Source: a virus (taxonomy: Duplodnaviria; Caudoviricetes). From it: 64,000 nucleotides of DNA. A program made the position numbers and the translations under genes. The stretch is taken from the IMG/VR virus record IMGVR_UViG_2974786931_000001, positions 103,774-167,773 of that record. The stretch is one strand, 5' to 3'. The first letter of the stretch is position 1. Every line of letters starts with the position of its first letter. Positions 31,835 through 32,692 of the stretch are shown here, one piece after another. The notes under the pieces were generated by a model that searched no databases, was not told the DNA's origin, and was given only the letters and a program-made list of their open reading frames with translations.

Positions 31835-31862
31835 AAAAATGGGAACCAATTAAGGTTCCCAT
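31835..31862 (-). terminator. Terminator after 30.9
   Basis: ATGGGAACC-ttaatt-GGTTCCCAT followed by T run. Confidence 0.88.
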
Positions 31863-32041: not shown

Positions 32042-32316
32042 TATTTTTCTTCCATAAGGAGATGAAACCAGTTATCTTTGCGTACACAAAGTGGGCTGGT
32101 CGAAAGGCTTCAATGAGCAACGGATGGTTTTGTAAAATTAACGTGCAAGTCCATCAACTTCCACATCATACATTGCTTCTATCTGTTGCACACCATTAGC
32201 TTAAAGGGTCTGGGTTAGATTTCTCTAGGATAGAATACGTATCAATGAATACGCAGGTCGTAACAGCATCAATTAAGAATCATTGTTCATTGATGCAAAA
32301 TGCTCTTACCGCAAAT
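32042..32316 (-). ncRNA. Putative structured non-coding RNA (several hairpins and a pseudoknot)
   Basis: No ORF in the track; helices GCAUCAAU/AUUGAUGC, CGUAU/AUACG, GUGCAA/UUGCAC, AGCAAUG/CGUUGCU, GAUGG/CCAUC, ACCAG/CUGGU. Confidence 0.55.
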
Positions 32317-32353
32317 TTTAGCTTCGCACTTAAGGTAGCGTATCACCTGATTT
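32315..32353 (-). ncRNA. Pseudo-ToxI (type III antitoxin-like) pseudoknot RNA
   Basis: AAAUCAGGUGAUACGCUACCUUAAGUGCGAAGCUAAAAU closely resembles the enterobacterial ToxI repeat as I recall it; flanked by AAAU motifs. Confidence 0.72.
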
Positions 32354-32602
32354 TTATTTCAATGTGACGATGAAATGACGAACAATTTTACGAGATGAAC
32401 TGCAAAGAGATTTTGCAAATTTCAATTCGTCTTGAACTTCAAGCTCATCAGCAAATTGTTTTTGAACTGGATTCAAGTGCTTAAAGCCTTTAAGAATATC
32501 TAGTGCTTCAGCTTTAACATCAATAGATGCGCCATAGTTTTCGTGACCGTTAGACCATGCTTGACGTTGTACAGAAAGTGCGTGAGTTAGTTGTTGATTC
32601 AT
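32354..32602 (-). CDS. rIII: Lysis inhibition accessory protein rIII
   Basis: QRQAWSNGHENYGASIDVKAEAL...GFKHLNPVQ...RHFIVTLK. Confidence 0.95.
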   Translation of the reverse strand: MNQQLTHALSVQRQAWSNGHENYGASIDVKAEALDILKGFKHLNPVQKQFADELEVQDELKFAKSLCSSSRKIVRHFIVTLK

Positions 32603-32625: not shown

Positions 32626-32658
32626 AAAATAAGGTGGAGACTTAAATGCATCTCCACC
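32626..32658 (-). terminator. Terminator-like hairpin between gene 31 and rIII
   Basis: GGTGGAGA-10 nt-TCTCCACC-TTATTTT. Confidence 0.7.
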
Positions 32659-32684: not shown

Positions 32685-32692
32685 TATTTATA
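32685..32692 (-). promoter_or_regulatory. Late promoter for rIII-RNA-30.9
   Basis: TATAAATA on minus strand just after gp31 stop. Confidence 0.8.

Follow-up and report, generated by a model that had tools for sequence, protein, structure and literature searches.

We found that the minus strand of a T4-like phage carries, directly after the gene for the lysis-inhibition accessory protein rIII, a unit (32351-32317) that, judged from its sequence, is a single complete ToxI-type type III antitoxin RNA repeat without a toxin gene. The stretch analyzed, hereafter the window, comprises 64,000 nucleotides (nt), positions 103,774 to 167,773 of the IMG/VR virus record IMGVR_UViG_2974786931_000001; the genome is complete at 167,773 bp, and among sequenced phages the Yersinia Tegunaviruses phiR1-RT and TG1 are closest to it. 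The homology of the unit to ToxI, the antitoxin RNA of the ToxIN system, is near certain, and its conservation, covariation and context point to a decoy antitoxin directed against ToxIN abortive infection, a reading to which we give a probability of roughly 0.6. The unit and its parts, all on the minus strand, are as follows:

32310-32355, minus strand: full match to the covariance model R1, covering the unit and both inter-unit junctions (62.2 bits, E 1.2e-11, model positions 1-47 of 47)
32317-32351, minus strand: one full, in-phase 35-nt ToxI-like unit, with a putative 5′ cut between 32352 and 32351 and a putative 3′ cut between 32317 and 32316
32350-32355, minus strand: 5′ junction motif, a run of A followed by U, sharing two bases with the end of the rIII stop codon (sequence reading)
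32315-32319, minus strand: 3′ junction motif AAAAU (sequence reading and R1 alignment)
32333-32348, minus strand: helix 1, the hairpin, AGGU with ACCU (pairs 32348-32333, 32347-32334, 32346-32335 and 32345-32336)
32325-32340, minus strand: helix 2, the pseudoknot stem, CGC with GCG (pairs 32340-32325, 32339-32326 and 32338-32327)

An initial annotation of the window had pointed out a ToxI-like string that immediately follows the rIII stop codon on the minus strand, and had quoted a ToxI sequence for comparison. The string is present as described, with the blocks CAGGUGAU, GCUACCUU, AAGUGC and AGCUA in that order; the quoted sequence equals the classic unit found on E. coli and Yersinia plasmids; and the four blocks recur in the same order in the classic ToxI unit of an E. 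coli plasmid array (L003) that lies upstream of an annotated ToxN gene. The 35-nt unit that the annotation had delimited between two AA/AU sites was correctly placed. The change of the second helix from UGC/GCA to CGC/GCG, which it had read as a compensatory substitution, is real; it is, however, not an innovation of the phage, as CGC/GCG is normal in several bacterial ToxI subtypes (E. albertii, P. atrosepticum pPA21A, Enterobacter and pGRT1).

We compared the stretch by BLASTN with 72,556 plasmids, which gave matches in 55 records at 132 places in unannotated DNA, typically 2-4 places per record, and then inspected 10 matching loci. At nine of these, a gene annotated as the type III toxin-antitoxin ToxN/AbiQ lies just downstream and is co-oriented. 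The tenth, on an unannotated 1.3-Mb replicon of Rhizobium leguminosarum (L013), displays a single unit near 1001-1035 with no ToxN within 1 kb and may be an orphan in a prophage, or a relic. A neighboring 96-nt block of the spacer between rIII and gene 30.9 (32080-32175), used as a control, yields plasmid matches at E ~9, none of them near a toxin. The covariance model R1 was built from 19 plasmid ToxI units and no phage sequence, and was searched with filters off; its match at 32310-32355 is the only significant one in the 167,773-bp genome, which therefore carries the unit in single copy, the next-best site in the window reaching 12.7 bits (E 0.6). For Rfam, by which the annotation had meant its proposal to be judged, there is indeed no match over the window at gathering thresholds, nor on 32200-32450 at E up to 10. 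This negative is nevertheless undiagnostic, because an authentic 5.6-copy ToxI array likewise has no Rfam match to ToxI. A search with seven ToxN proteins (tblastn) found no ToxN in the window, and one with the Pfam model PF13958, whose controls were weak, found none in the whole genome. Unlike ToxI arrays, the unit has no toxN neighbor, being flanked by rIII and 30.9, and there is no tandem array, with only one unit in the window and in the genome.

In length and register, the unit equals the 35-nt units of the Methylovulum and pGRT1 arrays. Both junction motifs align with the junctions of bacterial arrays, which are putative ToxN processing sites; a GAAAU motif lies just upstream of the 5′ junction (32356-32360), at which position the bacterial arrays have GAAAAUC- or GAAAUC-type sequences. 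Helix 2 is followed by a single-stranded tail and then by the second junction, and an A.A mismatch at 32341/32324 is shared with the pGRT1 and Enterobacter subtypes. The ToxN of Pectobacterium cuts at AA/AU. The literature passages searched (here and below, papers are cited for such passages) do not state an AA/AU specificity of ToxN, and name GAAAU as the cleavage motif of the E. coli enzyme (PMC10853763).

The bacterial arrays (10 in number, analyzed with Tandem Repeats Finder and a script) have 2-13 units, each 35-38 nt long, and were found on plasmids of E. coli, Yersinia, Pectobacterium, Enterobacter, Serratia, Pantoea and Pseudomonas. The closest to the unit of the window is a Methylovulum unit, identical at 34 of 39 positions, whose array is followed by a ToxN 80% identical to that of pGRT1. 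The ToxN clades of the different arrays share 36-54% identity, each with its own ToxI subtype, and a match of subtype to toxin is therefore plausible. By subtype, the likeliest target of the phage unit would be the pGRT1/Methylovulum/Enterobacter group of ToxN. A 65-nt contig from wastewater, with a depth above that of its neighbors and aligned to 32315-32353, has nearly the unit of the window flanked on its two sides by the start and the end of further copies, so a tandem array of this subtype exists somewhere in wastewater. On a viral contig of PhiTE size (L022, 142,349 bp), which may be PhiTE or a close relative, a unit at 2947-2986 is identical at 37 of 39 positions to the ToxI units of P. 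atrosepticum pPA21A (L009); the "pseudo-ToxI" of phage PhiTE may thus perhaps be a genuine ToxI of another ToxIN subtype from the same host species.

The same spacer in other T-even phages displays related units. We ran R1 on the rIII-30.9 spacers of T4-like phages ("none" standing for none at E up to 1), with these results:

phiR1-RT: 57.4 bits, immediately 3′ of rIII
moskry (Mosigvirus): 57.4 bits, immediately 3′ of rIII
VR20 (Gaprivervirus): 57.4 bits, immediately 3′ of rIII
TG1: 52.9 bits, 65 nt downstream of the stop codon
PKO111 (Jiaodavirus): 34.2 bits, 77 nt downstream of the stop codon
PSD2001: 27.8 bits, immediately 3′ of rIII
RB14: 18.4 bits, immediately 3′ of rIII
T4: 14.0 bits, a diverged form, immediately 3′ of rIII
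JS98, Moon, Serratia 4S and MP1: none

Units accordingly occur in this spacer in Tegunavirus, Mosigvirus, Gaprivervirus and Jiaodavirus and, diverged, in T4, and exactly one is present genome-wide in each of phiR1-RT, TG1, moskry and VR20. Moskry and VR20 differ from JS98 by the exact presence or absence of 36 nt between the stop codon and a common downstream flank. TG1 and PKO111 have their unit behind a block that, in the window and phiR1-RT, the unit precedes. Together with the site at the stop codon, this makes a minimum of two insertion points within a single spacer, which moreover houses several subtypes. The BLAST records comprise 79 of the moskry type, 477 of the T4 type and 164 of the PKO111 type, set against 1,093 records with rIII, counts that are not de-duplicated and come from queries that include flanks. 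The unit of moskry, VR20 and TG1 is the classic ToxI with a double change in helix 2 and an intact tail, and those of PSD2001, RB14 and T4 have lost one loop base and some of the tail. Pair 17-31 is G-C in moskry, G.U in PSD2001 and A-U in RB14 and T4. Between moskry and VR20 (L052 versus L053), the spacer is 95.3% identical and the rIII coding sequence 82.8%, a difference that points to strong constraint on the RNA of the spacer or, alternatively, to its recent exchange.

Orphan units are also found in unrelated phages. A 17-base core pattern retrieved 36 loci on viral contigs, 31 of which were confirmed by R1. The remaining five (L018, L036, L041, L047 and L049; three distinct sequences) have neither ToxI tails nor an R1 score and were rejected as chance matches. 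Among the confirmed loci, a ToxN gene accompanies only L051, which has three tandem units; the other 30, nearly all single-unit, show no ToxN in the locus sequence examined. Two adjacent units of different subtypes are seen in L016 (1856-1935), and two separated units each in L020 (1622-1781, on a 341,648-bp viral contig) and L042 (12745-13315), likewise with no ToxN in the examined locus; one of the L020 units has G-C at pair 16-32, a pair type absent from the plasmid set. Such paired orphan units, where their subtypes differ, may constitute a multi-subtype decoy set. A co-oriented tRNA gene lies within 700 nt at 13 of the 27 R1-confirmed orphan loci outside the rIII site (16 of 32 at the pattern level), several of these loci being near-duplicates of one another. 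For instance, the unit of L044 (9196-9241) is squeezed in between two tRNAs, a few bases from either, that of L017 (2166-2212) starts 11 nt after a tRNA, and that of L022 is about 300 nt downstream of co-oriented tRNA genes. The 3′ junction AAAU is kept in 20 of 27 distinct orphan units, and the search pattern did not require AAAU there.

Over 30 distinct rows of the resulting alignment, pair 16-32 is C-G in 23, U-A in six and G-C in one, and is never unpaired, while pair 17-31 is G-C in 29 and A-U in one. In helix 1, 95.8% of cells are paired, the closing pair being A-U, G-U or U-A. Double changes occur at four pairs. Overall, 93.3% of cells are paired versus 88.1 +/- 0.8 in shuffles, none of 500 of which reach 93.3%, and slid controls attain at most 57.5%. 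The conservation and covariation on which the initial annotation had made its proposal depend were found: units are present in the rIII-30.9 spacers of several genera, and the pseudoknot pairs covary. Its proposal is supported in part: a type III antitoxin-like RNA in a phage is borne out by the homology in R1, the orphan state, the single copy, both junctions and the placement in the rIII transcription unit, and the decoy function is probable from conservation, covariation and context. Its claim of novelty for T4-like phages holds within the literature searched. The unit is not special to this phage; it is common across Tevenvirinae, T4 with its diverged form among them. In the full-text literature searched, a ToxI unit of T4-like phages is undescribed, and "pseudo-ToxI" occurs only for PhiTE and in papers citing it; a 2017 paper on T4-family Serratia phages still has PhiTE as the only such case (PMC5449768), and a November 2026 review of phage counter-measures gives TifA alone against ToxIN (PMC13728456).

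The unit is placed within the rIII transcription unit in a non-coding context, the features of which, again on the minus strand, are:

32354-32602, minus strand: rIII, lysis-inhibition accessory protein, 82 amino acids (open reading frame, 96% identical to the annotated rIII of phage TG1)
31868-32041, minus strand: gp30.9 homologue, a basic protein of 57 amino acids encoded by the next gene downstream in the same transcription unit (open reading frame, annotated gp30.9 in phiR1-RT)
32685-32692, minus strand: TATAAATA motif upstream of rIII, T4 late promoter-like (sequence reading)
32633-32658, minus strand: terminator-like hairpin between gene 31 and rIII (terminator prediction)
31839-31862, minus strand: strong terminator-like hairpin after 30.9 (terminator prediction)
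32170-32256, minus strand: conserved structured RNA module, not ToxI-like (consensus fold over five phage genera)

Homologues of rIII were found in 1,093 phage records. Its stop codon here is TAA (32356-32354, minus strand), within which the ToxI-like unit begins, and the spacer up to 30.9 comprises about 310 non-coding bases. TATAAATA resembles the T4 late-promoter consensus. The hairpin at 32633-32658 may limit read-through from upstream early or middle transcripts, and that at 31839-31862 is the probable end of a transcript made of rIII, the unit and 30.9; the prediction places nothing resembling a terminator between rIII and the unit. The gp30.9 homologue, considered as a TifA-like protein, was ruled out, as it has no similarity to TifA. 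The spacer as a whole folds better than shuffled versions (z = -2.42). Its structured module at 32170-32256 has 32 predicted pairs, 10 of them with compensatory double changes across the five genera, and has no match in Rfam; a block of it is matched in 428 phage records. Over the compared part (32062-32312, against 1886-2014 of the phiR1-RT locus L001), the spacer of the window exceeds that of phiR1-RT by about 140 nt (310 versus 173 nt), and the extra part includes a hairpin and the conserved module. The rIII-30.9 spacer is accordingly a mosaic whose modules are gained and lost among close relatives. A second antitoxin mimic in the same spacer, at 32080-32175, was considered and rejected, its plasmid matches being at chance level only.

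In the accepted model, shut-off of host transcription by the phage leads to decay of toxI and thereby to free ToxN, which cuts at GAAAU (PMC10853763). Under the decoy reading, the unit would be transcribed at the start of the rIII 3′ untranslated region (UTR), on the rIII-30.9 transcript, while the host's own ToxI would decay as host transcription is shut off in the infected cell. The phage RNA would fold as a ToxI pseudoknot, with AGGU/ACCU as helix 1 and CGC/GCG as helix 2, and ToxN would bind it and cut the flanking A-rich junctions, above all the 3′ one. The cut RNA would then stay in the active site of ToxN as a product-like antitoxin, and ToxIN abortive infection would be blunted. The 3′ junction is far better conserved than its 5′ counterpart, which suggests 3′ cleavage as the decisive event, after which the active site would keep hold of the product; for units within tRNA operons, tRNA processing would presumably generate the 5′ end. 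We infer the timing and level of transcription, the processing, ToxN binding, protection and the target clade. A metatranscriptome contig spans the 3′ end of rIII, the unit and the spacer with one mismatch in 262 nt, which is weak evidence of transcription, as carry-over of DNA is possible. Three sequencing runs contain 13-27% of the words of the stretch, as contigs from which strand, ends and level cannot be read, and the parts of the stretch that they leave uncovered carry no meaning. A TifA homologue is not detectable in this phage, phiR1-RT or TG1 (none of three), in a search in which the positive controls moskry, VR20 and JS98 score with one or two homologues each. The unit may thus be the only anti-ToxIN device of these three Tegunaviruses.

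Several observations weigh against this reading. ToxN is freed early in infection, and upstream of rIII there is a terminator-like hairpin, with only a late-promoter-like motif to serve the gene. The phage has a single copy, versus 2-13 units in the 10 bacterial arrays. In PLSDB, a ToxN of the pGRT1 clade at 95% identity or above occurs only on three Pseudomonas plasmids; the sole Yersinia plasmid match has the classic ToxN clade, and a genome scan for the exact subtype of the window returned Methylovulum only, one scan by which absence from Yersinia is not established. In moskry and VR20, the unit coexists with a TifA homologue, and one does not simply stand in for the other. The 5′ junction AAAU is present in just seven of the 27 distinct orphan units and is lacking in moskry and VR20. 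The 3′ tail differs between the window and phiR1-RT (GCU against GCC), in the region that holds the interface residues C27 and U28 of classic ToxI (PMC3475682), a difference that could reflect relaxed constraint. As to covariation, the alignment was ascertained by a fixed pattern and fitted to the model, and therefore only its free columns (14-16, and 32 onward) are informative. Finally, a single PhiTE pseudo-ToxI repeat did not suppress over-expressed ToxN, wild-type PhiTE is aborted and its escape took 4.5-5.5 repeats (PMC3475682); plasmid-borne toxIN imposes a strong restriction on T4, T2 and T6 (PMC9391042), which in the case of T4 happens despite its diverged unit, so that at least this form is not protective against that ToxN.

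Part of this evidence also suits the view that the unit is a dormant seed or a relic of earlier recombination with a host toxIN locus. In single copy it would then be too weak to protect, and useful, if at all, only after tandem expansion or fresh recombination, as in PhiTE. That view, which we consider unlikely though deserving of real weight, draws on the abortion of wild-type PhiTE despite its pseudo-ToxI, with escapes that expand the repeats or recombine with the plasmid (PMC3475682), and on the restriction of T4 by toxIN (PMC9391042). It is further favored by the partly decayed look of PSD2001, RB14 and T4 (loop base and part of the tail lost; 27.8, 18.4 and 14.0 bits), by JS98, Moon, 4S and MP1, which lost the unit or never had one, by the failure to find a cognate ToxN in Yersinia (a plasmid search, and the one scan for the exact subtype), and by the wastewater array of nearly the unit type of the window, which could be a bacterial array or an expanded phage locus. 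The unit of the window, however, is complete and in phase, unlike the wild-type copy of PhiTE, and the different subtypes at two points of the spacer suggest repeated acquisition or replacement rather than one decaying fossil. Moreover, the double changes preserve pairing, the 3′ junction is preserved in 20 of 27 distinct orphan units and many unrelated phages retain orphan units within tRNA operons. That moskry and VR20 have the same unit though their rIII genes are 82.8% identical is a weak point of the same kind, since their whole spacer is 95.3% identical.

A further alternative is a structured element of the rIII 3′ UTR that acts independently of ToxN, as an exonuclease block, a processing signal or a binding site for a phage protein, with its likeness to ToxI due to common descent only. 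The location of the unit exactly at the rIII stop codon in several genera, the other conserved structured modules of the spacer, the folding of the whole spacer (z = -2.42) and the small basic protein encoded downstream are all consistent with such an element. On the other hand, the unit lies 65-77 nt past the stop codon and behind another block in TG1 and PKO111, and elsewhere in tRNA operons without rIII. Its placement relative to rIII is thus not conserved, in contrast to the tails and junctions specific to ToxI. A mere stability hairpin would have no need of ToxI-matching single-stranded tails, and JS98 lacks exactly these 36 nt with all else kept. We regard a ToxN-independent element as quite improbable. 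The resemblance of an AT-rich intergenic hairpin to ToxI by chance, for which one might cite a unit of only 35 nt, the lack of an Rfam match and the chance matches that the 17-base pattern does yield (five of 36 viral loci), is refuted by the R1 score of 62.2 bits (E 1.2e-11), which the runner-up at 12.7 bits falls far short of, by the ToxN-adjacent arrays at nine of 10 inspected BLAST loci, by the silence of Rfam on authentic ToxI as well and by the control block with matches only at E ~9, and its likelihood is virtually nil.

The decoy reading leads to a broader proposal, which we offer tentatively and at somewhat less than even odds. The T-even rIII-30.9 spacer would be a swappable slot for counter-defense RNA, in which units of different ToxI subtypes are inserted, replaced and lost in step with the ToxN clades of the hosts. 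More broadly, toxin-less units in highly expressed and processed RNAs (3′ UTRs and tRNA operons) would form a widespread, unrecognized class of anti-defense RNA, of which the laboratory-evolved locus of PhiTE is one special case and T4 a diverged member. Among abortive-infection systems, ToxIN is a model case whose triggering and escape are modeled on T4-like phages, and TifA is the only counter-measure described for these phages in the literature searched. If the proposal is true, RNA mimicry would be a common standing strategy, present in hundreds of sequenced T-even phages, rather than a laboratory curiosity of PhiTE, and part of a long-ignored, "empty" spacer beside a classic gene would be explained. 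It would also turn the natural allelic series (presence and absence, subtypes, and G-C to G.U to A-U) into a direct test of ToxI-ToxN specificity, and provide an annotation rule: to look for orphan ToxI units after rIII and in tRNA operons. Should the single copy be inert, the unit would still document raw material held by phages for rapid escape.

The element resembles several known systems. It shares with bacterial ToxI the unit of 35-37 nt, the two helices with covarying pairs, the A-rich junctions and the single-stranded blocks GGUGA, GCUACC and AAGUGC. In bacteria, however, ToxI units are arrayed in tandem just ahead of toxN, with a terminator behind the array, and the phage element is one unit after a protein-coding gene, with no toxN. 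TifA (T4 gp61.4; PMC9391042, PMC10853763) has the same presumed target, ToxN, in T4-like phages under the same selective pressure; it is, however, a protein that binds ToxN and RNA, while the element of the window is an RNA homologous to the antitoxin. T4 Dmd, the antitoxin substitute for RnlA and LsoA, follows the same logic of a phage antitoxin that replaces a labile host one (PMC9391042), but is an unrelated protein acting on a type II toxin rather than an RNA homologue of the host antitoxin. The closest parallel is the pseudo-ToxI of PhiTE (Blower et al. 2012, PMC3475682), likewise a phage-borne, toxin-less, intergenic ToxI-like sequence, with antitoxin RNA mimicry that suppresses ToxN in abortive infection as its proposed action. 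The 1.5 repeats of wild-type PhiTE are out of phase, do not encode a full RNA and are not protective, activity having arisen from laboratory-selected expansion (4.5-5.5 repeats) or recombination (PMC3475682). The element of the window, known as a sequence, is instead one complete, in-phase unit with both junctions, found in Straboviridae in the rIII-30.9 transcription unit and conserved across genera. What is new relative to the PhiTE precedent is a single in-phase unit that is naturally conserved in the 3′ UTR of a T-even phage protein gene.

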